The notes under the pieces were generated by a model. It saw nothing but the letters and a program-made list of their open reading frames with translations, was not told where the DNA came from and ran no database searches. Shown here piece by piece: positions 27,365 to 41,649 of a stretch of DNA of 64,000 nt; within the stretch, counting starts at the first letter, position 1; each line of letters starts with the position of its first letter. The DNA is from Candidatus Obscuribacteraceae bacterium. GTDB taxonomy: Bacteria > Cyanobacteriota > Vampirovibrionia > Obscuribacterales > Obscuribacteraceae. The stretch covers positions 480,001-544,000 of the forward strand of contig JBGASG010000001.1 of NCBI GenBank assembly GCA_044229845.1, read 5' to 3'. A program made the translations under genes and the position numbers.

Positions 27365-29383
27365 ATGCCGCGTGACCTGCCACTGGGAAACGGCACCGTG
27401 CTGGTCAATTTCGACCGGGACTACAACCTGCGCGACATACACTTTCCGGAAGTCGGGATGGACAACCACAGCGTCGGACATCCGTCGCGGTTCGGTGTCT
27501 TTTGCGAGGGGCAGTTTGCCTGGCTCTCCGCCGAATACATCCGGCAACGGCTCTACCTCACCGACGCTCTCCAGACCGATGTGGTCGCCACCATCCCGCA
27601 TCTGCAGCTCGAGCTGCGCTTCAACGATGCCGTCGACTTCTACCTCTGGACCTTCGTACGCAAGGTCAGCGTCAAAGACTTGAGCGGCCGCGATCGCGAA
27701 GTGCGGCTCTTCTTTCACCATGACTTTCACATCGTCGAACATGACATCGGCGACACTGCTTACTTCGATCCTGAGACCAGCAGCCTGATTCATTACAAAG
27801 ATGCGCGCTACTTCCTGATGAATGCCTGTGTTCAGGGGCATATAGGCTGGTCGCAATACGCCACCGGCACCAAGGAAACTGCCGGCATGCAGGGCACCTG
27901 GCGCGATGCCGAAGACGGAGTTTTGGGCGGTAATCCCATCGCGCAGGGCTCAGTAGATTCGACCGGCGCGGTTCATTTGAATGTCCCCGCCCGTGGTGAA
28001 CAGGTAGCACACTATTGGATGACCTTTGGCATCAAGTACGAAAAGGTCGTGAAGCTCAACGAGATCGTGCTGCAAAAAACGCCTGAAAAACTGCTGCACC
28101 GCACCGAAAGGTACTGGCACCTCTGGGTCAATAAAGACCCGCATCGCTTTGCCGATCTATCCGACGGCTCTGCTGAACTATTCAAACGCAGCCTTTTGAT
28201 CATGCGTACTAACTGCGATGACGGCGGGGCCATTATCGCTGCCAACGATTACGACATTGCTCAGTTCGGGCGCGATACCTACTCTTACATGTGGCCGCGC
28301 GATGGCGCGCTGGTTGCCGATGCCTTTGCGTCAGCCGGGTTTTTGTCGGTTTCACGGTCGTTTTTCCAGTTTTGCCTGAAGGTGATCACTGAAGAAGGCT
28401 ACTTGCTCCACAAGTACAATGCCGACGGCACGGTCGGTTCGAGCTGGCATCCATGGCTCAGACAGGGAGTGCCAACGCTGCCCATTCAGGAGGACGAAAC
28501 GGCGCTTGTGCTCTGGGCTTTGTGGCGACACTTCAATGCCTTTCGCGACGTTGAGGCGGTGCGCCCGCTCTACCGACGCCTGATCAGCAACGCGGCTGAC
28601 TTCCTGGTCTCATTCCGCGACGAAGAAACGGGACTGCCTCTGCCTTCATACGACCTCTGGGAAGAACGCTTTGGCATTCACCTGTTCACGGTCGCTGCCG
28701 TGATCGGTGGGCTGGAAGCGGCGGCGCGGTTTGCCACCGCATTCGGCGAAGATGAGCAAGCGGAGCGGTATACCCTTTGTGCCGAGGAGACACGGCAGGC
28801 GATGATCAAGCATATGTGGTCTCCACCGCATCAGCGCTTCGCCCGCATGGCGACCCGCACCAAATCCGGTTACACCCTGGATGTGACGATCGATGCGGCT
28901 AACTATGGCGTATTCGCCTTCGGCGCTCTGCCCGCCGATGACCCGAAAGTGGTCGCCACGATGAGCGCTATCGAAGAGCGTCTTTCTATAAAAACACAGG
29001 TTGGTGGGGTTGCCCGCTATGAAAACGATTATTACCAGCAGGTTTCTCAAGATATTGAAAATGTGGCGGGCAACCCTTGGTTCATCTGCACGCTCTGGGT
29101 CGCTCAACATAAGATCGCTGTCGCCAAAAGTCCTGATGACTTAACACGCGCCAGGGAGATTCTCGAATGGGTGGTAGGGCACGCTTTGCCCTCCGGGGTG
29201 CTGGCTGAGCAGGTTCACCCCTATACGGGTGAGCCGCTCTCTGTTTCGCCCCTCACGTGGAGTCACGCCACTTTTGTAACCTGCGTGTTAGAGTATGTCC
29301 AAGCTCGTGAGCGTCTGTCCGGCAAGCACCCAACTAAACAATCCCCAGCTTCAGTTTCAATCGGCGTCCCAAACAATGCTTAG
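27365..29383 (+). CDS. Glycoside hydrolase family 15 (glucoamylase-like)
   Basis: YSYMWPRDG, QEDET, YDLWEER, LAEQV..SVSPLTWSHA. Confidence 0.93.
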   Translation: MPRDLPLGNGTVLVNFDRDYNLRDIHFPEVGMDNHSVGHPSRFGVFCEGQFAWLSAEYIRQRLYLTDALQTDVVATIPHLQLELRFNDAVDFYLWTFVRKVSVKDLSGRDREVRLFFHHDFHIVEHDIGDTAYFDPETSSLIHYKDARYFLMNACVQGHIGWSQYATGTKETAGMQGTWRDAEDGVLGGNPIAQGSVDSTGAVHLNVPARGEQVAHYWMTFGIKYEKVVKLNEIVLQKTPEKLLHRTERYWHLWVNKDPHRFADLSDGSAELFKRSLLIMRTNCDDGGAIIAANDYDIAQFGRDTYSYMWPRDGALVADAFASAGFLSVSRSFFQFCLKVITEEGYLLHKYNADGTVGSSWHPWLRQGVPTLPIQEDETALVLWALWRHFNAFRDVEAVRPLYRRLISNAADFLVSFRDEETGLPLPSYDLWEERFGIHLFTVAAVIGGLEAAARFATAFGEDEQAERYTLCAEETRQAMIKHMWSPPHQRFARMATRTKSGYTLDVTIDAANYGVFAFGALPADDPKVVATMSAIEERLSIKTQVGGVARYENDYYQQVSQDIENVAGNPWFICTLWVAQHKIAVAKSPDDLTRAREILEWVVGHALPSGVLAEQVHPYTGEPLSVSPLTWSHATFVTCVLEYVQARERLSGKHPTKQSPASVSIGVPNNA

Positions 29384-31034
29384 TAGTAGCCCTTCTACTG
29401 CCAATAAGCGCAGCAAGTCGTTCTCCCAGATCTACGGCGGGCCGCTTGTAGCCTGCATTGACATGGGAACCAACTCCTTCCATATGATCGTTTGCCAAGC
29501 CACCGAGTCGCGCGATCACTTTGAAGTGGTGACGCGGGTCAAGGAAGCGGTGCCATTCTTCCGCCGGGCTTTGACTGCGCACTATATCGATGAAGTGGCG
29601 CTGTCATCAGCTATTCGCATCGTTCGCGACATGAAGACCAAAGCATTTCAAAAAGGGGCGAAGGACGTTCTGGCAGTGGCTACCTCGGCGGTCCGCGAGG
29701 CAAACAACGGAGAAGAGGTGCTGCAACGCATCCGCGAAGAGCTGGAAATCGACGCTCGCATGATTTCCGGACGCGAAGAAGCGCGTCTGATTTACCTGGG
29801 CGTTCTCTGGAGCATGCCCTCAATCAGGGGAGACTTCGCCATCATCGATATTGGTGGTGGCAGCACGGAAATTGTGGTCGGTGACCGCAACGAAGTGCGC
29901 TTCTCCGAATCGTACAAGTTGGGAGCAGCGCGGCTCACCCAGCGGTTCTTCAAGAAAGAGAAACCGACACAGCAAGAATTGCGAGAATTGCACGACGAAG
30001 TTCGGGGTGTTCTGAGACCGGCTGCCGCCAGGATCACACAAAGCGGTGGCTTCGGGCAAATGATTGGTACGTCCGGCACAGTGCAGACGCTGGCCAAGCT
30101 CGATCGCATCCGCAGCAAGAAAACTCAAGTCGATGCGCATGGATACAGGCTCAGTCTCGGTAATCTCGAAGAGATAGTCCACCTTTTGGAGGAGACGGCT
30201 CTGGAAGGCGGCAAGATCAAAGACCTGTCGGCAGACCGCAACCGCACCATTCTTGCTGGTGCCATCGTACTTCTGGAAGGGATGCGCTCTTTTGGAGCTG
30301 CCAACACAGTCGTCTGCACGGCAGCACTGCGCGAAGGGGTTGTGGTCGATCGCTTTCTGCAAACCGGCTGGTTGAAGGGCGGACTGGAAGCGCACCGCGA
30401 CCCGCGTTCATCGAGCGTGCACGAACTGCTCAATAAGTATCAGGCCAGCGTCCCCCACGCCGAGCAAGTGGCCAGGCTGGCTTGCGACATCTTCCGCAAG
30501 ACGCACGGCATACTGCATCACTATCCCGAGCAAGCGGAGCACCTGCTGTGGTCAGCCGCTATGCTGCATGATGTCGGCATGTTCATCGGTCGAAACGGGC
30601 ACCACAAGCACTCCTATTACCTGATTAAGAACGGCGGTCTGCTCGGTCATTCCGAGGAAGAAGTGGCTGTGATTGCCAGTATCGCCCGCTATCACCGGGG
30701 CAGCGAGCCCAAAGAAGCTCATGAAGCGGTGACTACAATCGTGCCGACGCAACGGCGCATGGTCAGCGAACTGGCAGCAATACTGCGCCTGGCGGAAGCG
30801 CTCGATCGCAGTCACCGTCAGGTGGTGCATCGCGTGGAGTTCGATTTCGAAACGTCACTTAAAGGCAAAGATGGACGCGAGCAAGTGTCGTTGCTGGTCT
30901 ACTTGCGACCGGGCGAAAACTGGGAGCCCGAAACCTGGGCGCTCAAAGAGAAGAAAGCCTTCTTCGAGAAAATCTTCCAGCTGCGGTTAGCGGTGGAAGT
31001 GCGCGTGGATTCGCGCTACACGCACTTACCCTAA
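29376..31034 (+). CDS. ppx: Ppx/GppA exopolyphosphatase with HD domain
   Basis: IDMGTNSFH, ATSAVREA, ISGREEA, DIGGGSTE, LREG, LHDVG, HHKHSYY. Confidence 0.93.
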   Translation: MLSSSPSTANKRSKSFSQIYGGPLVACIDMGTNSFHMIVCQATESRDHFEVVTRVKEAVPFFRRALTAHYIDEVALSSAIRIVRDMKTKAFQKGAKDVLAVATSAVREANNGEEVLQRIREELEIDARMISGREEARLIYLGVLWSMPSIRGDFAIIDIGGGSTEIVVGDRNEVRFSESYKLGAARLTQRFFKKEKPTQQELRELHDEVRGVLRPAAARITQSGGFGQMIGTSGTVQTLAKLDRIRSKKTQVDAHGYRLSLGNLEEIVHLLEETALEGGKIKDLSADRNRTILAGAIVLLEGMRSFGAANTVVCTAALREGVVVDRFLQTGWLKGGLEAHRDPRSSSVHELLNKYQASVPHAEQVARLACDIFRKTHGILHHYPEQAEHLLWSAAMLHDVGMFIGRNGHHKHSYYLIKNGGLLGHSEEEVAVIASIARYHRGSEPKEAHEAVTTIVPTQRRMVSELAAILRLAEALDRSHRQVVHRVEFDFETSLKGKDGREQVSLLVYLRPGENWEPETWALKEKKAFFEKIFQLRLAVEVRVDSRYTHLP

Positions 31035-31054: not shown

Positions 31055-31663
31055 TTACTTGGTGGCGAGTTGTTTAGACTGAATAGTCTCGGCCATTTTT
31101 TTGACGTTGGTTAGACGCTTGCCGAGTTTCTTACCCTGGAAGCTCTCCATCATGCCGCGTGGAATCGGCAGCCCCATGTCGATGTAGGACGTGAGCTCGA
31201 GAATGGTGCCTTTGCCATCTTCGGTCGGGGTCAGAACCCAGCTTCCTTCAAATGCTTTGAAGCGGTCGGATTTGACCATGGTGTAGTCGATGCGCTCGTT
31301 CACTACCTCGTCTTGCTTCATGAGGCAGGTAGCGCTGCCGATTACAGGGATAAGATTGAACTTCTGCTCCAACATTTTGACGTTGGCTTTTTCTTCCAGA
31401 AGCTTGCTGTACTCCAGGTCGGGATCGTGCTTGCGCTCCTCGTGGACTGATTCCCAGACGACGTGAGGCGAAGCGTTGATCAAAACGCGACCTTTGACGA
31501 ACTTCTTGTTCTCGGTCTTTTTCTCGGTGCTAACAACCGCTTCGCCTTTCTTGAAGGCAGCGTCCGAACAGGTGTCTTTGGCTGCAACGGCTGAGACTGT
31601 GGTTAGCGCGAGGGTGAGACAGAGAGCGGTTCTTGATAGGAAACGGATGCCAGGCGAAAACAA
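31055..31663 (-). CDS. Exported SRPBCC/START (polyketide-cyclase-like) lipid-binding protein
   Basis: TTG 31663 after GAGGGGAG gives a signal peptide; INASPHVVW...FKAFEGSWVLTP. Confidence 0.8.
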   Translation of the reverse strand: MFSPGIRFLSRTALCLTLALTTVSAVAAKDTCSDAAFKKGEAVVSTEKKTENKKFVKGRVLINASPHVVWESVHEERKHDPDLEYSKLLEEKANVKMLEQKFNLIPVIGSATCLMKQDEVVNERIDYTMVKSDRFKAFEGSWVLTPTEDGKGTILELTSYIDMGLPIPRGMMESFQGKKLGKRLTNVKKMAETIQSKQLATK

Positions 31664-31859
31664 ATTGACCTCCCCTCTAGGCGCCCAAATCGCTGATTTG
31701 GTGAGCCTTAAAACCATTATGCCACCAGATACGGTTACATGTAAATAGCGGCTGACAACCTGCGGACAGGTTGATATTACCTTGACCTCTATCAATAGGT
31801 TATGACGAGATCTTTATTGTCGAGTTCCAGTGTTTTGAAAGGTTCTTTCTTGAGAACTT

Positions 31860-32516
31860 CTAGAATCCAAACGGGATGGCCGCCGGCACGATCCGTCGCC
31901 ACTTGAGTTCCTCGGCGTACTGCTTGTAGTCGGGTCCCAGTGTCTTTAAAAGAAGTTCCTCTTCGTACTTGGCTCGACGCAACCAGAGCGGTGCGATCAC
32001 CAGCAGGGTGAAAAGAGCGATGCTCCAGGACAGTGCTGCTACCGATGCTCCGAAGAGCGATTGGCAGATGCCTGAGTAGATAGGATGCATGACGAACTTC
32101 AGCATGCCTGTTTTGCGGACTGTGTGGTTGTCCTGGATTTCTGCGTCGGTGGAGAACATATCGCCGAGCGAATACCAGCCACCGATCATGAAGATCAGCC
32201 CGCTGGCCAGAATAATCACACCGACCCAGGAGATTATGGCGCCGACTGCATCCGGCAAAATTCCTTGCAGTGTCCAGATGAGTTTCAGCCCGGGCTGCCC
32301 TTGATGGATGATTTCGTTCTTGGCGAAAAATGCTGCTACCAGCATGAATATGGCTGCCAGACTGCAGAGCTGCGGTGCCCGTTGCAGGAAGAAGTGCTTC
32401 TCGTAGAAGACACCTTTGCCGGCTCTACCAAATCCTTTGATCAAGACGGGGGTGGCAATAATCGCGCCTACAGCGACAAGCCCCGCGGTCACAAGTGTTG
32501 GTGCATCGAGATTCAT
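31860..32516 (-). CDS. ICMT/PEMT-family membrane methyltransferase
   Basis: LG..FS......H.VRKTG..K.VMHPIYSG...EEELL...GPDY..Y. Confidence 0.85.
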   Translation of the reverse strand: MNLDAPTLVTAGLVAVGAIIATPVLIKGFGRAGKGVFYEKHFFLQRAPQLCSLAAIFMLVAAFFAKNEIIHQGQPGLKLIWTLQGILPDAVGAIISWVGVIILASGLIFMIGGWYSLGDMFSTDAEIQDNHTVRKTGMLKFVMHPIYSGICQSLFGASVAALSWSIALFTLLVIAPLWLRRAKYEEELLLKTLGPDYKQYAEELKWRRIVPAAIPFGF

Positions 32517-32528
32517 CGTAATTACCTT

Positions 32529-33290
32529 CTAGAGTTTGAACAGATCATCGCTAAGGGAGGCGGAGATTTTGAGGTTCTTCCAGACAGTGCGGGCGAACAA
32601 ACGACCGTCCTGATAGTCGAACCACTCCACCGGTAAAAGAGACTGCGAGTTTACGTAAGCTCGCTTGTACAGCGTGTCGCCTTTGTAGATCTCCAGGATG
32701 TATACCTTTTCCGGATGTCCATCCACGGCGATCGGGCGGTCTGTGACACGGCTTTTCATGCCTTGTTTCAGGAAGCCCTGGACCACCCGGCACATACTGG
32801 CCCAGTCCGAGTCGACCATTGGAAAACCGTTGGCCGACAGGAGTTGATCGGAATTTTCAGACAGCGTCACGGTGAATGCCGAGAGGGCACCACCCAAGTG
32901 ACCGCGTACCTTGCCGTCTTTTCCAATCACAGCTACTGCGCCCTTCTTGTAGTCGCCTACTTCTTCCACCCTTAATAGACGGGGTTTCATGAAGTAGAAG
33001 TTTCCTTTTTCAAAGATTGTTTTCTTTCCTTTGAAGACCGACATTTCGTAGGTGAAGGAGTAAGCCTTCAGGTCACTGGCGGCATTGGTCATGTCGTTGA
33101 TGATCTCGGTGCCGTCCACGGTTTTGCCGATGCCGCTGATTTGAGATAAGGAAGAGAAACTGCTGACCAGGGGTTGCACCGTGGAGTCTGCCTGACACGC
33201 TGGCGGCAGGCTGACTGAAAGGACTGTTGCCGCTATCGCGAAAGCCGCCAGCGGCGATCTAAATCTAGATTTTTGTCGGGTGAGAAGCAT
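32529..33290 (-). CDS. Exported LolA-like / lipoprotein-carrier-fold protein
   Basis: Signal peptide; YSFTY..., GNFYFMKPRLLRVE; C-terminal NLKI...LSDDLF. Confidence 0.7.
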   Translation of the reverse strand: MLLTRQKSRFRSPLAAFAIAATVLSVSLPPACQADSTVQPLVSSFSSLSQISGIGKTVDGTEIINDMTNAASDLKAYSFTYEMSVFKGKKTIFEKGNFYFMKPRLLRVEEVGDYKKGAVAVIGKDGKVRGHLGGALSAFTVTLSENSDQLLSANGFPMVDSDWASMCRVVQGFLKQGMKSRVTDRPIAVDGHPEKVYILEIYKGDTLYKRAYVNSQSLLPVEWFDYQDGRLFARTVWKNLKISASLSDDLFKL

Positions 33291-33550
33291 TAACGGACGA
33301 TTTCCATAGTGCGGACGCGACCAACGTGTTTGGGTAGCTTTCTGACAGATGGAGCTACGGAGCGTCCCCGCAGAAATAGGCAGTCGTGGTTGTCAGGAAT
33401 CTAAGAATCTCAGCCAACAACCGCGGACCCAGTTTCCGTGCGGCGCGTCATTATGTCACGCGTTGCAATCAAGCGTCCTTAGACCCGCTTATTGTTGCCA
33501 AGGCGAGCGGAAGCAGGACGATTCCCAGCTTAACGAAATCCGGCTTAATG

Positions 33551-34264
33551 CTATTTCACACAAGTGGGGACGTCGGAGCTAGTCTTGGTTTCTTCCGTCG
33601 GACATTGCCATAGTTTGAGCAGCGCTTCCAGAATCACGTCGGCGCCTTCCGGAATCTCATTGCCGGTCTTGTTTTCGATGTCGCCAAGCATGCGCTTCAT
33701 CCAGAGCGCATGGCGAGTGTGTGGTTTGGCATGCAGGCGCAGCCATTCAAGCCCATCTTCTACTACTTCGGAGGAATATTTTTCCGGGTGACGCTCGAAG
33801 TAGCTGTCGTAATGCGGCAGAGCAGCGCGTGAATAAAGTGTGGCAGCCATTTCAGCCGCGACGATGGCATGCACTCCGTCGACGTATGAAGACTCCTGGC
33901 AGAATCTCTTCATGCCCTCACAGAGCACCCGGGTGGTTTCGCCGGGCACGATTTTGACCAGGTCGCGCTCATCAAGACCCGCCAGATAGCACTGGCGAAT
34001 GAACAACTGCTGGTAGTGGCGCTCATCGTCTGCCAGTTGCTGGAGCAGGTTTTGAGCTGCTTCCATGTGCGGCGGTGCCTTTTCACGCACAGCGCCGATG
34101 TTGGTCGGCAGGTCTTTGATGAACGGCCAGAGGTCGGTGAGGTTTTCTTTGGCCGCATCGACGATCTTGTCGTCGTCGGCCAGATTGGCAAACCATGGAC
34201 TGGTAGAGCATCCCCAGCTAATTCGGTCCAACAAGATCGGCAGCCAACTGGGTAGTGAAGCCAT
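33551..34264 (-). CDS. Heme-oxygenase-like diiron (TenA/PqqC/CADD/UndA superfamily) redox enzyme
   Basis: All-helical; LWPF, DDERHY, AAEMA, WLRLHAKPHTRH ligand-bearing segments. Confidence 0.7.
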   Translation of the reverse strand: MASLPSWLPILLDRISWGCSTSPWFANLADDDKIVDAAKENLTDLWPFIKDLPTNIGAVREKAPPHMEAAQNLLQQLADDERHYQQLFIRQCYLAGLDERDLVKIVPGETTRVLCEGMKRFCQESSYVDGVHAIVAAEMAATLYSRAALPHYDSYFERHPEKYSSEVVEDGLEWLRLHAKPHTRHALWMKRMLGDIENKTGNEIPEGADVILEALLKLWQCPTEETKTSSDVPTCVK

Positions 34265-34543
34265 GGTGATGTAAGTCCCTCTCGACGAAAAAGCGTACGG
34301 CAGTGTTAATCACTTCGTACTTGCCTGAGATAGCTTAACACCCCATGCAGTGCCTTCTTTGCGAAAACTCAGAGTAACTTAACGAATTTATGCAAGCTGA
34401 CGCGGCGGTAGTTGGACCGTCACGCTCGGCAACCCAGGGTAAAAATAGCCCAATACTGCGTCACATTGCCTGTTGAGCCAAGCTGTCAGTTGGTAAACTA
34501 GGGCGCCTCCCCAATGGCGGATGCGGCGCCGGGCTAGAAACCA

Positions 34544-35455
34544 ATGCTTGAAGATAACTTTGCCAAGGTCGGTAGTGCGCCGAATCTCTCACCAGCGCGA
34601 CCTGCCGAGACTCGCATTTTCACCACTTCCGATGGTGTAGAGCAGTTTGCCCGCGTCATTCGCGCCAGAACGGCAGAGGTAGCCACGCTTGTATACCTGC
34701 ACGGCATCGAGGGACATAGCCTCTGGTTCGAGGAAACTGCCGAGATTCTGGCTGCCCAGGGAATTACGACCTATGCGCTCGACCGACGCGGCGCCGGGAT
34801 GAGCCGCGAACCGCGCGGTGATCTGCGCGACTGGCGCCGTCTGGTCAAGGACATCGACGAAACGGTCGACTCGATAGCGGCTTTGTCCGACACACCGCTT
34901 TTTCTCATGGCCAACTGCTGGGGCGCAAAGGCGGCTATCGTTTCGGTTGCCGATGCAGCTGAGTTTCCTGCCTGCCACCGGCACATAAAGGGACTTATCC
35001 TCACTTCGCCCGCCATTGCCGTCCAGGTCGACGTCGATCTGCCGACGAAACTGCAAATCGGGTTGAGCTATTTCCTTCGTGACGGAAAGTTGTTTCCCGT
35101 TCCGCTCGTGCCTGAGCACTTCACGGACAATCCGCCCTACCTCGACTTCATTCGCCAGGACGAACTCCGCCTAAAAGACGCGACGGCATCGTTCTTCCTC
35201 CAGAGTTTGATTCTCACCCGCCGAGCCCAGCTGGCTACCAGCCGCCTCAAATTGCCGGTACTGCTTTTGCAGTCGGGCCGCGACGGAATAGTTGTGGTAT
35301 CCAAAATCGAGAAATGGTTTTCACAAGTTGCTGCCGCCGATAAGAAACTGGAGATGTTTCCGGCCGCCGCGCACAGTCTGGATTTTGAAGCGGGCAGCGA
35401 ACGTCAGCGCTATCTGCAGGTGCTTGGAGAATGGCTCCTGGAGCGTGCCCGATGA
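34544..35455 (+). CDS. Alpha/beta hydrolase (lysophospholipase-like) with Cys at the nucleophile elbow
   Basis: YLHGIEGHS, DRRGAGMS, MANCWGA, SGRDGIV, AAHSL. Confidence 0.88.
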   Translation: MLEDNFAKVGSAPNLSPARPAETRIFTTSDGVEQFARVIRARTAEVATLVYLHGIEGHSLWFEETAEILAAQGITTYALDRRGAGMSREPRGDLRDWRRLVKDIDETVDSIAALSDTPLFLMANCWGAKAAIVSVADAAEFPACHRHIKGLILTSPAIAVQVDVDLPTKLQIGLSYFLRDGKLFPVPLVPEHFTDNPPYLDFIRQDELRLKDATASFFLQSLILTRRAQLATSRLKLPVLLLQSGRDGIVVVSKIEKWFSQVAAADKKLEMFPAAAHSLDFEAGSERQRYLQVLGEWLLERAR

Positions 35456-36630
35456 AAATCGTTGCCATCGACACTTTCAAGGTGCTGCTGCCGTTTAGAT
35501 TCAGCTTCAAGCACAGCCTGGCGGCAAGAGCCGAATCCGAGAATCTGATCGTGCGCGTCAGAACCGATAGCGGCGTCACCGGATATGGTGAGGCCGTGCC
35601 GCGTGATTATGTTACCGGCGAGCATATCGATCAGGCATGCACCAATATTCACCGCCTCTACAAACCGCAGCTGATAGGTCTGCAATTGGATGATCCGGCT
35701 GCCTGCTACGCACAGATCAATCAGGTTTTCGATCAATTGTCGATCGGGACAAAATTGCAGGGCGCTTCCTGGTCGGCGGTCGAGCTGGCAGTCCTGGACG
35801 CGCTTGGGCAGGCACAAGGCAAGTTTACGCTGGATGTGCTTGGCAGCCGCAAGCAGGAGCGCATTCGTTATGGCGGCGTGGTGCCGTTCGGCAGCAAAAA
35901 AGGGCTGCTCGCGATTCTCTGGTTTTACAAGCTGCTCGGTTTTCAGACCGTGAAGATCAAAGTCGGCACAGGACTGGACGATGATCTCTACAAAGTGCAG
36001 GTGGCCCGCAAAGTCATGGGACCGGACGCGATTATCCGCGTCGATGCAAATTGCGCATGGAGCGCCGCGCAAACCGTCGAAGCGGCAAATGCATTTCGGC
36101 CGTACAGCATCGCTTCGATCGAACAACCTGTTCCAGCAGATGACTACATCGGACTGAAACAAATAATGTCCAGCATCGAAGATGAGATTGTTGTCGACGA
36201 ATCACTGTGTACGGTCGAGCAAGCAGAGCGGTTGGCTGCTGAGAAACTCTGTCGGGCCTTCAATATCAGGCTTTCAAAGGTCGGCGGTTTTTGCGGCGCA
36301 TCACGGATGGTGGCAATTGCCAAGCGCGCCAATCTGCGCTGTCACCTGGGCGCGCAGGTGGGAGAAACAGGTATACTCAGCGCTGCTGCACGCGCATTCG
36401 CTATGCTCAACGAAAACTTTGAAAACTATGAAGGTTCTGCCAACTTCTTCTTGCTAAAACGTGACATTACGCGCGAAGGATTGAACGCCGGACTGGGAGG
36501 CTGGGGCGATCTCTCCTATGCCTCCGGAAACAAATCGGGCTGGGGAGTAACCGTCGACACATCTACATTGGCACCGACGTCGCAAGAGTCAGCGGCGCCA
36601 CAACTGGAGCATGGGGTTTCATTGAATTGA
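35452..36630 (+). CDS. Enolase-superfamily enzyme, muconate-lactonizing/dipeptide-epimerase subgroup
   Basis: GYGEAVP, KIKVG, RVDAN, IEQP, VDES, NIRLSKVGG. Confidence 0.9.
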   Translation: MKIVAIDTFKVLLPFRFSFKHSLAARAESENLIVRVRTDSGVTGYGEAVPRDYVTGEHIDQACTNIHRLYKPQLIGLQLDDPAACYAQINQVFDQLSIGTKLQGASWSAVELAVLDALGQAQGKFTLDVLGSRKQERIRYGGVVPFGSKKGLLAILWFYKLLGFQTVKIKVGTGLDDDLYKVQVARKVMGPDAIIRVDANCAWSAAQTVEAANAFRPYSIASIEQPVPADDYIGLKQIMSSIEDEIVVDESLCTVEQAERLAAEKLCRAFNIRLSKVGGFCGASRMVAIAKRANLRCHLGAQVGETGILSAAARAFAMLNENFENYEGSANFFLLKRDITREGLNAGLGGWGDLSYASGNKSGWGVTVDTSTLAPTSQESAAPQLEHGVSLN

Positions 36631-38303
36631 GAAAGGTTGAAGTAGCGCTGGGACAGGCTTATAGATATGCGACGCATGTGCGCCGCTTCGATCAAGCTTT
36701 GCGTACCCCGCTACCGGCTCAGCACGACAAGCTGATGCAGGTGATCAAAGCTAACGAAAATACTGCGTTCGGGCAGAAACACAACTTCGCCAAGATCAAT
36801 TCGATCAGCGACTATCAGAGTTTGGTGCCGCCCAATACGTATGAAGATCTGCAGCCTTACATCGAGCGCGTCATGAACGGCCGGCGTGGGCAGCTGACCA
36901 ACGAAGACGTCGTCATGTTTGCCACTACTAGCGGTACCACAGGCAAACCGAAATATATTCCGATCACGCCTTCGCACCTCAAAGATTACACCCATGCCTT
37001 TCAGGTGCAGAACTACAAGATGATCGTTGACTATCCGGGCGCACCGCTCGGTACTTACATGATCTTCTCCAGCAACGACGAAGAGGGCCGCACCGCGGCA
37101 GGCATTCCTTTTGGTTCGGTCTCTGGACTCTTGCGCCAGCGACAATCGTCGCTCGTCCAGAAGTATTTTGCGCTCCCTCACCTGGTGAGCCGCATCAAAG
37201 ACGTTGAAGTCAAATACTACGTGATGCTGCGTCTGGCTCTTTGTCAGGATGTTTCAGCGATTCTCGGTTGCAATCCATCCAGCATGCTGTTGCTTGCCGA
37301 CCAGATGCAGGAGCGCGCCGAAGAATTGATTAGCGACATCGCGGAAGGCACGCTGCGAAAAGCATTCATGCCACCGCCCGCGATTGCGGAACCCCTTTCA
37401 CGTCACTTTGTCCACGACCGAGTGCGTGCGCAAGAATTGCAGCGCATTCTCGATAAACACGGGCGACTCACTCCAGAGCTGGTCTGGCCGAACATGGCCA
37501 TGCTCTCCTGCTGGAAGGGTGGACCGATGTCGTTTTATCTGGATCGCCTGCCGGCTGTTTACGGAGACTTGCCGATTCGCGACTTCGGCTATATGGCCAG
37601 CGAAGGGCGGGGAACTATTTCTATCTCGCATCAGGGTGCCGGCGGCGTGGTCGCTCTCACCTGCCACTTCTTCGAGTTCGTGCCGGAAAACGAAAAAGAC
37701 TTGCCCAACCCGACCTTCTTGACTGTCGACCAGCTGGAGTTGGGTGGTCGCTACTACATCTATTTCACAACCTCCTCGGGACTCTATCGCTACGACATCA
37801 ACGACCTGATCGAGGTCGAGAGCTTTGAGTACAACACACCTGTTATTCGCTTTGTCCAGAAAGGAATGGGGGTGAGCTCCGTCACTGGCGAGAAGATCAC
37901 CGAAGAACAGGTGCAGGTAGCTCTGCAGTACGCGTTGCGCATGCTTAACCTGTCCGGTATCGAGCACTTTACTTTTGCCGTCGAAATGGATTACCCGCCG
38001 CACTATGTCTGTTTCGCCGAGGTCAAGCAAGACTTGCCGGATTCTGTGGTTCAGGAATTCCTCAGGGTTTTCGAGCAGTCTTTGCAATTGCAAAACATCG
38101 AGTACAAAGACAAGCGGGCAACAAAGCGCCTGGGTGCTCCCAAGTTCCAGAAGGTTCCCAATGGAACATTCACACGCTTAAGACAACATCGCGTTTCGGC
38201 CGGAGCACCGGAAGCACAGGTTAAAATTCCCCTGTTGAATGCGGGGGTGGATTTCTACCACACGCTCGCAACCATCGGTTGTGTCCTGTCGCTAACCAAC
38301 TGA
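36627..38303 (+). CDS. GH3-family acyl-acid amido synthetase (adenylating enzyme)
   Basis: TTSGTTGKPKYIP, YMASEG, FFEF, GLYRYDINDL, GEKITE. Confidence 0.93.
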   Translation: MRKVEVALGQAYRYATHVRRFDQALRTPLPAQHDKLMQVIKANENTAFGQKHNFAKINSISDYQSLVPPNTYEDLQPYIERVMNGRRGQLTNEDVVMFATTSGTTGKPKYIPITPSHLKDYTHAFQVQNYKMIVDYPGAPLGTYMIFSSNDEEGRTAAGIPFGSVSGLLRQRQSSLVQKYFALPHLVSRIKDVEVKYYVMLRLALCQDVSAILGCNPSSMLLLADQMQERAEELISDIAEGTLRKAFMPPPAIAEPLSRHFVHDRVRAQELQRILDKHGRLTPELVWPNMAMLSCWKGGPMSFYLDRLPAVYGDLPIRDFGYMASEGRGTISISHQGAGGVVALTCHFFEFVPENEKDLPNPTFLTVDQLELGGRYYIYFTTSSGLYRYDINDLIEVESFEYNTPVIRFVQKGMGVSSVTGEKITEEQVQVALQYALRMLNLSGIEHFTFAVEMDYPPHYVCFAEVKQDLPDSVVQEFLRVFEQSLQLQNIEYKDKRATKRLGAPKFQKVPNGTFTRLRQHRVSAGAPEAQVKIPLLNAGVDFYHTLATIGCVLSLTN

Positions 38304-38325
38304 CCTTTTACAGAGGAAACCGAAA

Positions 38326-39366
38326 GTGCCCCCACTGAAGATCTTTGTCACCGGAGCCACCGGCATGGTGGGACTGCATATCGCGCAACACATGCTGGAA
38401 AAAGGTCATCAAGTGACAGCGCTGGTGAGGCGCTCAAGCGATACATCCAAGTTGAAGATCTTGCCTGGCAAACTCGACATTCGCACCACCGAACTCGACA
38501 ATGCCAATAATGTCGGCAATCTGATGAAGGGACACGACGTTGTAATTCATTGCGCCGGGTCCGTGGATCCGCATGCGACTCGGGAAGAGATATTTGGTGT
38601 CAACGTCGGCGCCACTGAGATTGCTCTGCGCGCGGCGATCGATGCGGGCATCAAACAGTTTATCCACATGAGCAGCCTGTCTGTGATTACCGGACAGGAA
38701 GACCAGTTCAACGTCGATGAAAACGCGCCGCTGCGCACTTGCGGCGAGGCTTATGCCGACTCGAAAGTAGAAGCTGAAAAGCTGGTGATCAGTCTGGCCG
38801 GCACCGGACACCTGCGCGTCACCGTACTGCGTCCCGGCTTTATCTATGGACCGGGCGAACGAGCCTGGATGCCGCGTCTGATCAAAAATATCGCTTCCGG
38901 CAAAGCGATGCTGATCGACGGCGGCAAGAAAGAAACCAACGTCATCTACGTGGGAAATCTCTGCAAAGCTGCCGAACTGGCATTGCTCAACGAAAAGTCA
39001 TTCAATCGCGTTTATAACCTCACCGACGGACAGAAGGTGAGCAAGAAGGATCTGTTTGATGCCATCGCTGACGGGCTCGGATTGCCGCGCATCAAGAAGA
39101 CCATTCCCTCGGCGATTGCGCGCCCGGTCTGCGAGATTGTCTCCAACATTGCTCCCATGTTGTCGCCGGAAAAACGCCAGGAGCTGTCCCGCTTCTCACG
39201 CGCTGCTTACAGGCTGGCCGGCATCAATCAAGGCTTTTCGATCGCTCGCGCCGAAACAGAGCTCGGCTATACCAACCGCGTACCTTTTACAGAAGGTATG
39301 GCCAAAACGCTGGAAAGCTTTCAGGTACCGGGCGGCAGTCAGAATTTCGTGCAATCTGGAAGATAG
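38326..39366 (+). CDS. Extended SDR, 3-beta-HSD/OleD-like NAD(P)-dependent oxidoreductase
   Basis: VTGATGMVG, HMSS, YADSK, LRPGFIYGPG. Confidence 0.88.
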   Translation: MPPLKIFVTGATGMVGLHIAQHMLEKGHQVTALVRRSSDTSKLKILPGKLDIRTTELDNANNVGNLMKGHDVVIHCAGSVDPHATREEIFGVNVGATEIALRAAIDAGIKQFIHMSSLSVITGQEDQFNVDENAPLRTCGEAYADSKVEAEKLVISLAGTGHLRVTVLRPGFIYGPGERAWMPRLIKNIASGKAMLIDGGKKETNVIYVGNLCKAAELALLNEKSFNRVYNLTDGQKVSKKDLFDAIADGLGLPRIKKTIPSAIARPVCEIVSNIAPMLSPEKRQELSRFSRAAYRLAGINQGFSIARAETELGYTNRVPFTEGMAKTLESFQVPGGSQNFVQSGR

Positions 39367-39369
39367 GCA

Positions 39370-39636
39370 GTGCAGGGCGTGAAGGACTTTGTTATCGACT
39401 ACATCGGGCGCCACAAGCATCCGGTCAATGCCATTCTGCACATTTTTGGAGTGCCGCTGGCATTCTATGGATTTGGGCTCTTGTTCTTCGGACAATTCCT
39501 AAATGCGCTGCTCTGTATCTTTTTCGGCTACGTCTTGCAGTGGCTGGGTCATCGTGCGCAAGGCAACGAAGTGGGCGAGGTGATTCTGATCAAGAAGATC
39601 TATCGCCGCATTACTGGAGGAAAAGCGGTTGGCTAA
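39370..39636 (+). CDS. Short Mpo1/DUF962-like membrane protein
   Basis: Y...H.HPVN..LH..GVP and LQWLGH...GN motifs. Confidence 0.8.
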   Translation: MQGVKDFVIDYIGRHKHPVNAILHIFGVPLAFYGFGLLFFGQFLNALLCIFFGYVLQWLGHRAQGNEVGEVILIKKIYRRITGGKAVG

Positions 39637-40636
39637 AGGCAAAACCGGAATAGTCGCTGTCGACGGTGCCACTGGTTATCTGGGCACTCACTTGATTGCG
39701 CGCTTGCTGGAGCTGGGGCTGCCGGTGCGGGCTCTCGTGCACGCCAAAGCTGATGCTGAAGACCTGGAGGTATTGAAGAGACTGGGGGCCGACGTGCGTG
39801 TCGTGCGTATGGACGGCGGTGATGACAGTCTGGATAAAGCCCTGACTGGTGCAGACGTGGCCGTGCATCTGATCGGTTCGATTGCGCCACGCAAAGGCGA
39901 ACGGCTGGAAGAACTGCATGTCGAACAGACCGGACATCTAGTCGATGCGGCGCGGCGCTGCGCGGTGAGCAAAGTCGTGATGGTGACGGCACTTGGTACG
40001 GCACCGAATGCGGTGAGCGAATATCATCGCACTAAATTCCGCGCCGAAGAAAAAATTCGCAACGGCGGCAGACCGTACATAATACTGCGACCGTCACTGA
40101 TTTTCGGTCGGGTCATCGGACGCCGCGACAGTAAGCTGATTGCCCGCTACATCGACCTGATTCGCACGCGCTCTTCGGTGCCGATGGTTGGTGGCGGAAC
40201 TAACAAGTTGCAACCCGTGTTTATCAGCGACCTGGTGACTGCACTGGTGCAAAGTGTGACCAGCGACGATTTCAACGGCCAGATTCTGGAGATCGGCGGC
40301 GCCGATGTCTTTACTATGAGAGAGATCGTCGAGACGTTGATGCGCACGCTCAACATCGAGAAGAAGATCAGCGATCTGCCGCCGCCGGTGGCAGGAGTGG
40401 TGGCTTTCTTCTGCGAGACTTTCCAGAGCGATCGCCCCACGTTGAGCAGCGACCAGGTGCGACTGGCGCAAGTCGACAACGTGTGCACGAGCAATGCGTT
40501 GATTTCAAAATTTGGTGTCACTCCTGTCTCCCTGCGTGACGGCTTGCGTACTTACGTAGGCAGCGCCGGCGGGTCGGCAGGTACAAATGGTCCGGCTGCC
40601 TCTAAGGACGATCAGCCGACACCGGTATCCCACTAG
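39629..40636 (+). CDS. Atypical SDR, NDUFA9-like NAD(P)-binding oxidoreductase
   Basis: DGATGYLG, HLIGSI, TALG, YHRTK, LRPSLIFG, LQPVFISD. Confidence 0.85.
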   Translation: MAKGKTGIVAVDGATGYLGTHLIARLLELGLPVRALVHAKADAEDLEVLKRLGADVRVVRMDGGDDSLDKALTGADVAVHLIGSIAPRKGERLEELHVEQTGHLVDAARRCAVSKVVMVTALGTAPNAVSEYHRTKFRAEEKIRNGGRPYIILRPSLIFGRVIGRRDSKLIARYIDLIRTRSSVPMVGGGTNKLQPVFISDLVTALVQSVTSDDFNGQILEIGGADVFTMREIVETLMRTLNIEKKISDLPPPVAGVVAFFCETFQSDRPTLSSDQVRLAQVDNVCTSNALISKFGVTPVSLRDGLRTYVGSAGGSAGTNGPAASKDDQPTPVSH

Positions 40637-40644
40637 GAGTCGCA

Positions 40645-41649
40645 GTGAAAATCGTTGTTACCGGAGCCAGCGGCTTTTTTGGAGTGAGCCTGGTATCGCG
40701 TCTGGTTTCTCTCGGGCATGACGTCACCACATTCGGCAGGTCGCCTGCGGTGGCGCCGCAATTGAAACACCTGAACGTAGCCCATCTGCGGGGCGACGTC
40801 GAAGAACCAGCGTCTCTCCCTCCCATGTTTACCGACTGCGATGTGTTGTTTCATATGGCTGGACTGGTGTCCTACCGGCGAGCCGACCGGGACAAACTAT
40901 ATAAAGTGAATGTGGACGGAACGCGCAATGTCATGAAGGCGGCCCTGTCTGCAAAGCGCACACCGCGCATCATTCACCTCGCTTCCATTGCTGGAATGGG
41001 CATCCCGCCTGACGGCGAGATTGGCGACGAATCGCTGGCATACAATCTGGATGGTCTGAGCCTTTTTTATTGCGACACCAAGCATGAAGGCGAGATGATC
41101 GTGCTTGATATGGCACGGCAGCAGGGACTGCCTGTGATTTCCCTCAACCCCGGTATTACATTCGGTGAGGGTGATACACATCCGCACCACCACACGATCT
41201 TTGCGTCAATGGCGCGCGGCGTGCTGCTCGGCTATCCGGTGGGCGGCGTGATGTTCTCCGACATCCGCGACATAGTCGATACTTCTATCAATGCGATGAC
41301 GATGGGACAGTTCGGCGAGCGCTATGTTGTGGGCAGTGCCAACATGACCTTCCGCGACGCATCCTTTGTGTTGTCGCAAGTGATCGGGTCGAAACCGCCA
41401 CCGTTCCCTATTCCGGGTTGGGTTGCCCTATCTGCCGGCTCAGCCTGCGAGGCCGTGCTACCACTTTTCGGGCGCAAACCGCCACTGACCCGCGCCGTCT
41501 CCTGGCTATCGCAGCGGAAGATATTCTTTTCGTCCGACAAGGCCATTAAAGAACTCGGGCACAAGCAAACGCCTTTTGAAGAAACGGTGCGTCGCACCGC
41601 TCCTTATTACCTGCAATCCTCCGGCAAAGCCATCGCCGCCAGCCACTAA
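40645..41649 (+). CDS. Extended SDR, HpnA/dihydroflavonol-reductase-like
   Basis: VTGASGFFG, FHMAG, VNVDGTRNV, YCDTK, FSSDKAIKELG. Confidence 0.88.
   Translation: MKIVVTGASGFFGVSLVSRLVSLGHDVTTFGRSPAVAPQLKHLNVAHLRGDVEEPASLPPMFTDCDVLFHMAGLVSYRRADRDKLYKVNVDGTRNVMKAALSAKRTPRIIHLASIAGMGIPPDGEIGDESLAYNLDGLSLFYCDTKHEGEMIVLDMARQQGLPVISLNPGITFGEGDTHPHHHTIFASMARGVLLGYPVGGVMFSDIRDIVDTSINAMTMGQFGERYVVGSANMTFRDASFVLSQVIGSKPPPFPIPGWVALSAGSACEAVLPLFGRKPPLTRAVSWLSQRKIFFSSDKAIKELGHKQTPFEETVRRTAPYYLQSSGKAIAASH

Follow-up and report, generated by a model that had tools for sequence, protein, structure and literature searches.

A window of 64,000 nucleotides from a Candidatus Obscuribacteraceae bacterium (assembly GCA_044229845.1, contig JBGASG010000001.1, positions 480,001 to 544,000) carries at positions 31055 to 41649 a cluster of eleven genes that includes an alpha/beta hydrolase, an enzyme of the muconate-lactonizing enzyme (MLE) subgroup of the enolase superfamily and a GH3 adenylating ligase, here called GH3a. 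This cluster is a single-copy core gene set of the host family and probably a variant of the lipid pathways in which a GH3 and a hydrolase build acyl conjugates, its enolase-superfamily step being unexplained. We give a probability of roughly 0.5 to the reading that it serves the biosynthesis of an acylated envelope lipid, an acyl conjugate that is probably phosphorus-free. The genes form two divergent arms, with seven on the plus strand (34544 to 41649) and four on the minus strand (34264 down to 31055); counts in the list refer to 42 loci of the host family.

31055..31795, minus strand: SRPBCC/START-fold protein with a signal-peptide-like N-terminus, predicted lipid carrier (Pfam Polyketide_cyc2, E 4e-6; 34 of 42 loci)
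31860..32516, minus strand: ICMT/PEMT-family membrane methyltransferase with the HPxY...R..EE motifs kept (Pfam ICMT, E 6e-9; 37 of 42 loci)
32529..33290, minus strand: LolA-fold exported protein of 253 aa, predicted periplasmic lipid carrier (AlphaFold and Foldseek; 28 of 42 loci)
33551..34264, minus strand: heme-oxygenase-like (HO-like; UndA/CADD/TenA fold) protein of 237 aa with degenerate metal ligands, accessory (fold and ligands; 26 of 42 loci)
34544..35455, plus strand: alpha/beta hydrolase of the monoglyceride-lipase type, Cys125-Asp247-His277, predicted acyl-release or acyl-transfer enzyme (Pfam Hydrolase_4, E 1e-40)
35452..36630, plus strand: enolase-superfamily enzyme of the MLE subgroup, distinct subfamily (Pfam MR_MLE_N/C; residues)
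36627..38303, plus strand: GH3 adenylating ligase of the GH3a clade with three nucleotide-binding motifs (Pfam GH3 N/M/C, E 3e-70)
38326..39366, plus strand: extended short-chain dehydrogenase/reductase (SDR) SDR1, 3-beta-HSD/OleD-like, YxxSK intact (Pfam, NCBIfam, alignment)
39370..39636, plus strand: mini Mpo1/DUF962 membrane protein of 88 aa with conserved His motifs (Pfam, E 2e-9; 40 of 42 loci)
39629..40636, plus strand: SDR2, atypical extended SDR (Pfam, NCBIfam, alignment; 41 of 42 loci)
40645..41649, plus strand: SDR3, HpnA-like, 207 bits against a cut-off of 368 (NCBIfam; 39 of 42 loci)

All eleven open reading frames (ORFs) described in the first-pass annotation are present at these positions in the ORF list and the sequence, and the tight packing claimed for the plus strand is exact in the DNA, with ATGA at 35452-35455, TTGA at 36627-36630 and spacings of 22 (GH3-SDR1), 3 (SDR1-Mpo1), -8 (Mpo1-SDR2) and 8 nt (SDR2-SDR3). 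The family and fold labels given there were likewise borne out by Pfam, NCBIfam and AlphaFold models, except for the term 'diiron'. No NCBIfam equivalog exceeded its cut-off with any of the cluster proteins. SDR1 and SDR3 retain YxxxK in the alignment, and the 'NDUFA9/CerR-like' label of SDR2 presumably reflects a general resemblance.

Close homologs (55-70% identity) are named, for example, Candidatus Obscuribacterales and Melainabacteria, which suggests a host of the order Obscuribacterales. The 42 family loci come from 41 genomes (roughly 40-65% identity) and were chosen by their best GH3/MLE match rather than randomly, some lying on cut contigs; in 36 of them the order hydrolase-MLE-GH3-SDR1-Mpo1-SDR2-SDR3 is intact, and this conservation exceeds chance. 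Of 103 family genomes, 96 carry a single MLE gene; it also occurs in one of three sister-family genomes. Any GH3 match was found in 36 of 36 family genomes, mostly in two copies, and an ortholog of GH3a itself in 56 of the 59 family genomes with at least 90% completeness. Among the three misses GH3a is split across contigs in G023 and into two ORFs in G380, and it is truly absent from G017. The G380 operon (L220) is otherwise intact, pointing to a frameshift or an assembly error; in G024 the cluster is divided between two loci (L051, L053) with one GH3a copy each. Inheritance as a core, single-copy and syntenic set is what one would expect of a structural lipid and not of a natural product with patchy distribution.

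A published precedent for such a pathway is the ornithine lipid of Singulisphaera acidiphila, which is made by OlsH (a GH3), OlsI (a hydrolase) and OlsG (a methyltransferase), according to excerpts of PMC12493201. OlsH was functional in extracts only. In the same excerpts and in parts of PMC12971839 the OlsH authors expect other GH3s to yield other N-acyl amino lipids. In both systems one locus combines a GH3, an alpha/beta hydrolase and a methyltransferase, and the logic of a free fatty acid plus ATP is shared, whereas the cluster exceeds OlsH/OlsI/OlsG by the MLE, three SDRs, Mpo1 and the carriers. The first-pass annotation recognized no characterized cluster here and did not cite this precedent; its view holds insofar as the cluster encodes a conserved, apparently undescribed lipid-handling pathway. 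A combination of GH3, MLE, hydrolase and Mpo1 was not described in the full-text literature searched, most subscription journals and supplements being outside its reach.

Membership in the Ols families was rejected for both enzymes. GH3a shares 25% identity with L207, a true OlsH, and scored 117 bits on NF052613 against a cut-off of 620 (control L207, 630 bits). The hydrolase gave no NF052614 match (cut-off 385, E<=0.01; control 431 bits) and reached a BLAST E of 0.42 to a true OlsI. An OlsB-type acyltransferase (PF13444) was not found in genome G000. The cultured Limnoglobus roseus possesses a true OlsI...OlsH operon (L207), a separate GH3a-related gene (L206) and an MLE (L124). Hopanoid tailoring was discarded as well, as G000 gave no match to squalene-hopene cyclase (PF13243) and the HpnA score lies at 207 against 368.

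The MLE of the cluster has K168/K170, D198/E224/D249, R273, E305 and E327 as key residues. Both lysines of the KxK motif (K168, K170) and the metal ligands D198, E224 and D249 are conserved in 31 of 31 family sequences, and in all 31 the beta6 position of the second catalytic Lys, which in an aligned dipeptide epimerase is the Lys of NIK, is occupied by Arg (R273). We also searched 50%-identity representatives and examined the best 150, which form a coherent subfamily with an NxRxSK signature; in this column 127 of them have Arg and 21 have Lys, and 2 are gapped. The enzyme thus possesses the KxK motif and three acidic ligands general to the MLE subgroup and lacks the two opposed lysines of the racemases/epimerases AEE and NSAR. 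With dipeptide epimerases, NSAR/OSBS and muconate cycloisomerase it shares the KxK base, the D/E/D ligands and about 30% identity to solved members, but it differs from them in the Arg replacing the second Lys, in its GxQVGE and EG motifs and in the conserved cap residues H21/R51/Y, and all NCBIfam models for members of the subgroup scored far under their cut-offs. We know of no lipid substrate of the enolase superfamily, although no search aimed at one was made. The second Lys is needed as acid/base in racemization but acts only as a cation-pi stabilizer of the intermediate in the dehydration catalysed by OSBS (excerpts of PMC12006748). Together with the Arg at this position, this mechanism makes one-base elimination or cyclization likelier for the MLE than racemization, as judged from its residues. 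Fusions of hydrolase and MLE (3 of the best 150 representatives) and of an HO-like oxygenase and MLE (2 of 150) tie these pathway steps together.

Next to the MLE, the hydrolase has a C125-D247-H277 triad, and the Cys nucleophile claimed for it is present in 30 of 30 family sequences; its closest solved structures are monoglyceride lipases. GH3a has the three-domain architecture of its family, and motifs I-III (SGT..K, YxxSE, GLYRY) are conserved in 32 sequences. It matches the plant GH3 acyl-acid amido synthetases (JAR1, GH3.12) over the full length (E 5e-39) and has the three nucleotide-binding motifs in common with them, whereas sequence identity is low. From the chemistry of the GH3 family and the example of OlsH, GH3a would be expected to form an amide. 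The column aligned with JAR1 S151 is Asp in GH3a and varies among relatives, so that it does not name the amine.

To follow the module beyond the order, an alignment of 53 MLE representatives was scanned against GTDB genomes, and the best 80 of at least 600 matches were kept as outside loci. These span Omnitrophota, Planctomycetota, Desulfobacterota-type genomes, Binatia, Acidobacteriota, Myxococcota, Lentisphaeria and others. Within 10 kb of the MLE, a hydrolase was found in 34 of the 80, a GH3 in 21, SDR1 in 12, ICMT in 4, Mpo1 in 3 and SDR2 in 1. The conservation beyond close relatives that the first-pass annotation had put forward as a test was therefore observed for the hydrolase/MLE/GH3 part, which recurs in several distant phyla. 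Omnitrophota carry subsets of Mpo1-methyltransferase-SDR1-nitroreductase-hydrolase-MLE-GH3-ferredoxin, Bryobacteraceae the arrangement GH3-hydrolase-SDR1-Mpo1-SDR2-MLE followed by a flavin-containing monooxygenase (FMO) and an aldehyde dehydrogenase, and Lentisphaeria, Smithellaceae and Myxococcales MLE-GH3-ICMT. Four loci of this last type (L169, L099, L104, L149) additionally encode a protein of about 440 aa without Pfam or NCBIfam match, and three of the four a Rid/FkbO-like protein. In thirteen Desulfobacterota-type loci (L089, L096 and 11 similar ones) an LpxL-like acyltransferase adjoins the MLE, and most of them also encode FadL, a divergent PAS/GAF histidine kinase and response regulators; judged by gene content these loci look like a fatty-acyl signalling module. 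With the acyltransferase replacing GH3, they suggest that the MLE substrate may be an acylated product with a free carboxylate and that GH3 itself may be dispensable.

In the phylum of the window, but outside its order, the MLE was detected in 12 of 300 sampled genomes. Nine such loci from three families contain an HO-like oxygenase preceding the MLE in eight, a GH3 following it in eight and a detectable ICMT in four, and a tenth (L205) has an OlsE-like amino-lipid hydroxylase fused to a GH3 adjoining the MLE. The recurrence of HO-like and ICMT genes at these loci argues that their counterparts in the divergent arm are real partners of the module. A compact operon of HO-like diiron oxygenase, MLE and GH3, in part with ICMT (L196-L203, L128, L134), has full iron ligands and is the version of the module simplest to handle at the bench; its flanks often encode Ser/Thr kinase or adenylate cyclase AAA-TPR proteins. 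At L208 and L210 a planctomycete GH3 related to GH3a lies downstream of FabG, acyl carrier protein (ACP) and ketosynthase (KS) genes, among them a fused KS-hydrolase frame. Other lipid-type neighbours outside the order are a patatin and a second hydrolase. From such lipid-enzyme neighbours (the OlsE-like fusion, the LpxL-like acyltransferase with FadL, FabG-ACP-KS with the hydrolase frame, and patatin) a fatty-acid substrate may be deduced.

In the route we favour the Cys hydrolase would free or transfer a fatty acyl chain, and GH3a, like OlsH, would activate the free fatty acid as acyl-AMP and couple it with an amino acid or amine. The MLE, working with one Lys base and the Arg, would dehydrate a beta-hydroxy carboxylate to an alpha,beta-unsaturated acid; its favoured substrate would be the head group or the chain of the conjugate, hydroxylated beforehand by the oxygenase where one is present. 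Oxidation state or chain length may then be adjusted by the three SDRs and Mpo1. ICMT may add a methyl group to the head group or to its carboxylate, and transport of the product through the periplasm would fall to the START- and LolA-fold proteins. Ordinary fatty acid synthesis could supply the acyl donor, or else a PfaA-like polyketide synthase (PKS) that accompanies a second GH3 of the order, GH3b.

GH3b is 39% identical to GH3a, and in a tree of 56 rows, with every third GH3a kept, GH3a, GH3b and the MLE-linked GH3s from outside form separate supported clades, all far from true OlsH. In G000 it lies at C8:320840-340314 (L214, L062) among genes for an SRPBCC protein, a LolA-like protein, a three-gene PfaA-like iterative PKS (NMO/ER-KS-AT-ACP-KR-DH; KS; AT-DH-PPTase), a GT21/HpnI-like glycosyltransferase and a GT4. 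Across the order, including the sister family, GH3b is accompanied by the PKS in 17 of 17 loci in view (9 of 9 and 8 of 8) and by GT21 in 15 of 17, and this locus is likely an undescribed glycolipid pathway. The earlier description of the cluster as PKS-free is thus doubtful, given a paralogous GH3b that adjoins a PfaA-like PKS and a GT21-like glycosyltransferase order-wide.

A comparable trio of folds is attributed to borrelidin biosynthesis. Olano in 2004 is said to have described borE, borF and borL of the borrelidin starter unit as encoding an enolase-superfamily enzyme, a lysophospholipase-like hydrolase and a GH3, respectively; as far as we know, it is the sole characterized cluster with this set of folds. 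The best plasmid match of GH3a belongs to a cluster of the borrelidin type (PKS, P450, aminotransferase, GH3, F420 reductase, threonyl-tRNA synthetase) with 30% identity and E 6e-49. On the GH3a profile this BorL-like protein, the single protein on which the borrelidin comparison is based, scored 238 bits versus about 370-600 for MLE-linked GH3s. The plasmid record in question (NZ_CP027299.1, L228) starts inside the PKS cluster and is probably an assembly fragment, and only a PKS-type reductase fragment was present in the 3 kb read from the record neighbouring it. Three MLE queries against plasmids (tblastn) returned only generic matches of about 30%, and scanning metagenomes with the BorL-like protein gave no match.

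Several observations weigh against an acyl-conjugate envelope lipid. Borrelidin is not known to contain an amide, and the GH3 of its PKS cluster indicates that a GH3 need not form one. GH3s are present in the borrelidin and fostriecin clusters, and a GH3 knockout had no effect on legionellol, as stated in excerpts of PMC5640695. No GH3 was found in the two Desulfobacterota-type MLE genomes checked. Within the order, G017 (98% complete) and G039 of the sister family keep hydrolase-MLE-SDR1-Mpo1-SDR2, whereas GH3a is absent from the operon and GH3b is their only GH3, so that the locus can hardly be called GH3-centred, as it had been. Of 31 outside hydrolase sequences, 24 have Ser as their nucleophile, so that the chemistry is not defined by Cys. 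Genes for START- and LolA-fold proteins are linked to the module at family level only, being present in 0 of the 80 best outside loci within 10 kb of the MLE; with the flanking ppx gene syntenic as well, the export role claimed earlier is not sustained. Finally, sequence analysis names neither product nor substrate nor amine.

Among other explanations, a diffusible acyl signal made by the same chemistry, namely an unsaturated or cyclized fatty acid together with its amino-acid conjugate or methyl ester, instead of a bulk membrane lipid, is an unlikely candidate. Plant GH3s conjugate hormones, and outside the order sensors often adjoin the module (PAS/GAF histidine kinases, response regulators and FadL; Ser/Thr kinase-TPR, MinD-like and adenylate-cyclase-AAA proteins). 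In the family, a response-regulator-like ORF, read from sequence, follows the operon in four of ten loci inspected. The window cluster itself, however, contains no regulator, no receptor is conserved between lineages, and near-universal presence in a fixed order within the family speaks against a signal. A broader version of the pathway, which we regard as unlikely, sees in the Arg-type MLE a new lipid-tailoring chemistry over many phyla that would yield a bacterial oxylipin-amino-acid conjugate by a jasmonate-like logic, a trait that would be fixed at the core of the cyanobacteria's non-photosynthetic sister lineage. Here the lipase-like hydrolase would free a fatty acid, an HO-like diiron enzyme, an OlsE-like enzyme or Mpo1 would oxidize it, the MLE would eliminate or close a ring, SDRs would reduce, GH3 would conjugate an amino acid and ICMT would methylate. 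It is quite unlikely that the operon instead tailors the product of the PKS-GT21-GH3b cluster, both loci building one glycolipid. The constant association of GH3b with PKS and GT21, its persistence where GH3a is lost, the presence of both loci on one contig within about 55 kb in G034 and G017 and the second SRPBCC and LolA-like pair adjoining the PKS in G000 are compatible with such a joint product. Yet the two loci lie on separate contigs in G000, MLE modules of other phyla have no such PKS within 10 kb, and the second SRPBCC/LolA pair was not seen by the PKS in the stretches from relatives.

Salvage or catabolism of lipids would use the same enzymes for lipase release, dehydration, reduction, alpha-oxidation of hydroxy fatty acids by Mpo1 and activation by GH3. 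The lipase-like hydrolase and the Mpo1 family agree with this, as do the FadL, aldehyde dehydrogenase, FMO and acyl-CoA dehydrogenase that some of the outside loci encode, and the pairing of an MLE with a Cys hydrolase is reminiscent of chlorocatechol catabolism. We nevertheless consider it quite improbable: methyltransferases, the hydroxylase-GH3 fusion, the acyltransferase and the ACP/KS neighbours favour synthesis, the hydrolase has no Pfam match to DLH, and genes for a dioxygenase or for beta-oxidation are absent from the family loci. In yeast, Mpo1 takes part in the turnover of sphingolipids, and a GT21-like enzyme adjoins GH3b, which would suit a ceramide pathway with GH3 in place of bCerS and SDR2 as CerR. 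CerR is NDUFA9-like according to excerpts of PMC11087976. Serine palmitoyltransferase, however, was found in 0 of 61 genomes of the order (NF047599, E<=1e-95; controls detected), the two members of its family in G000 being Kbl and BioF-like, which renders a ceramide highly improbable. The fold order of hydrolase, MLE-subgroup dehydratase and adenylating enzyme equals that of MenH-MenC-MenE; a divergent menaquinone block can nonetheless be set aside almost completely, because MenD reaches 75 bits against a cut-off of 244 in G000 (88% complete), two proteins of the futalosine pathway are present there and the OSBS models score far below their cut-offs. An acylated envelope lipid remains the reading we prefer.

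The proteins of the divergent arm require some qualification. The AlphaFold model of the HO-like protein (pLDDT 92) has the helical fold of UndA and CADD and matches UndA/CADD/TenA structures (best E 9e-7, TM 0.70), and Pfam detects a weak TENA_THI-4. Diiron oxidases of this fold carry the ligand set E..H / E / H-x3-D/E-x2-H. Of 18 orthologs, 9 keep the first His and 14 the last, and none has the bridging Asp/Glu of H-x3-D/E-x2-H, so that the host-clade protein lacks the complete set. Calling it a diiron enzyme was therefore premature, and its gene, often lost, occurs in 26 of the 37 loci with the upstream arm in view. MLE-linked HO-like proteins of other lineages have the full set in most cases and match the host-clade protein weakly (17% probability). 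The LolA-like protein has no Pfam match; its model (pLDDT 85) is an open beta-barrel that matches LolA-fold proteins (Foldseek best E 3e-8), and it falls into LolA/DUF1571 clusters of the ESM Atlas. For the SRPBCC protein the true start is probably Met27 (about position 31717), the N-terminal columns being gapped in most orthologs.

Beyond this arm, 23 of 31 family loci have a Ppx/GppA exopolyphosphatase gene (29295-31034 in the window) directly beside the cluster, accompanied by hemE/hemY. As ppx is also syntenic, shared gene order within the family is not enough to link the divergent arm with the pathway. The proximity of ppx may be mere synteny or may hint at a connection between phosphate and a lipid free of phosphorus. 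The GC content of the cluster equals that of the remaining window, and a promoter scan of the divergent intergenic region stayed at chance level. Contigs from 4 of 14 RNA-listed runs cover parts of most cluster genes with short pieces, many of them 99% alike, which may include DNA carry-over and from which neither co-transcription nor a ranking of the genes is readable.

If our reading is true, the cluster specifies a lipid made by nearly every member of an uncultured family, and the seven-gene plus-strand operon is a cloneable unit of 7 kb for finding it. The analysis also singles out a large, uncharacterized MLE subfamily whose gene partners are mostly lipid enzymes, and bacterial GH3 chemistry would be extended beyond OlsH. 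As a trait at the core of the lineage, such a lipid could serve as a biomarker for these organisms.

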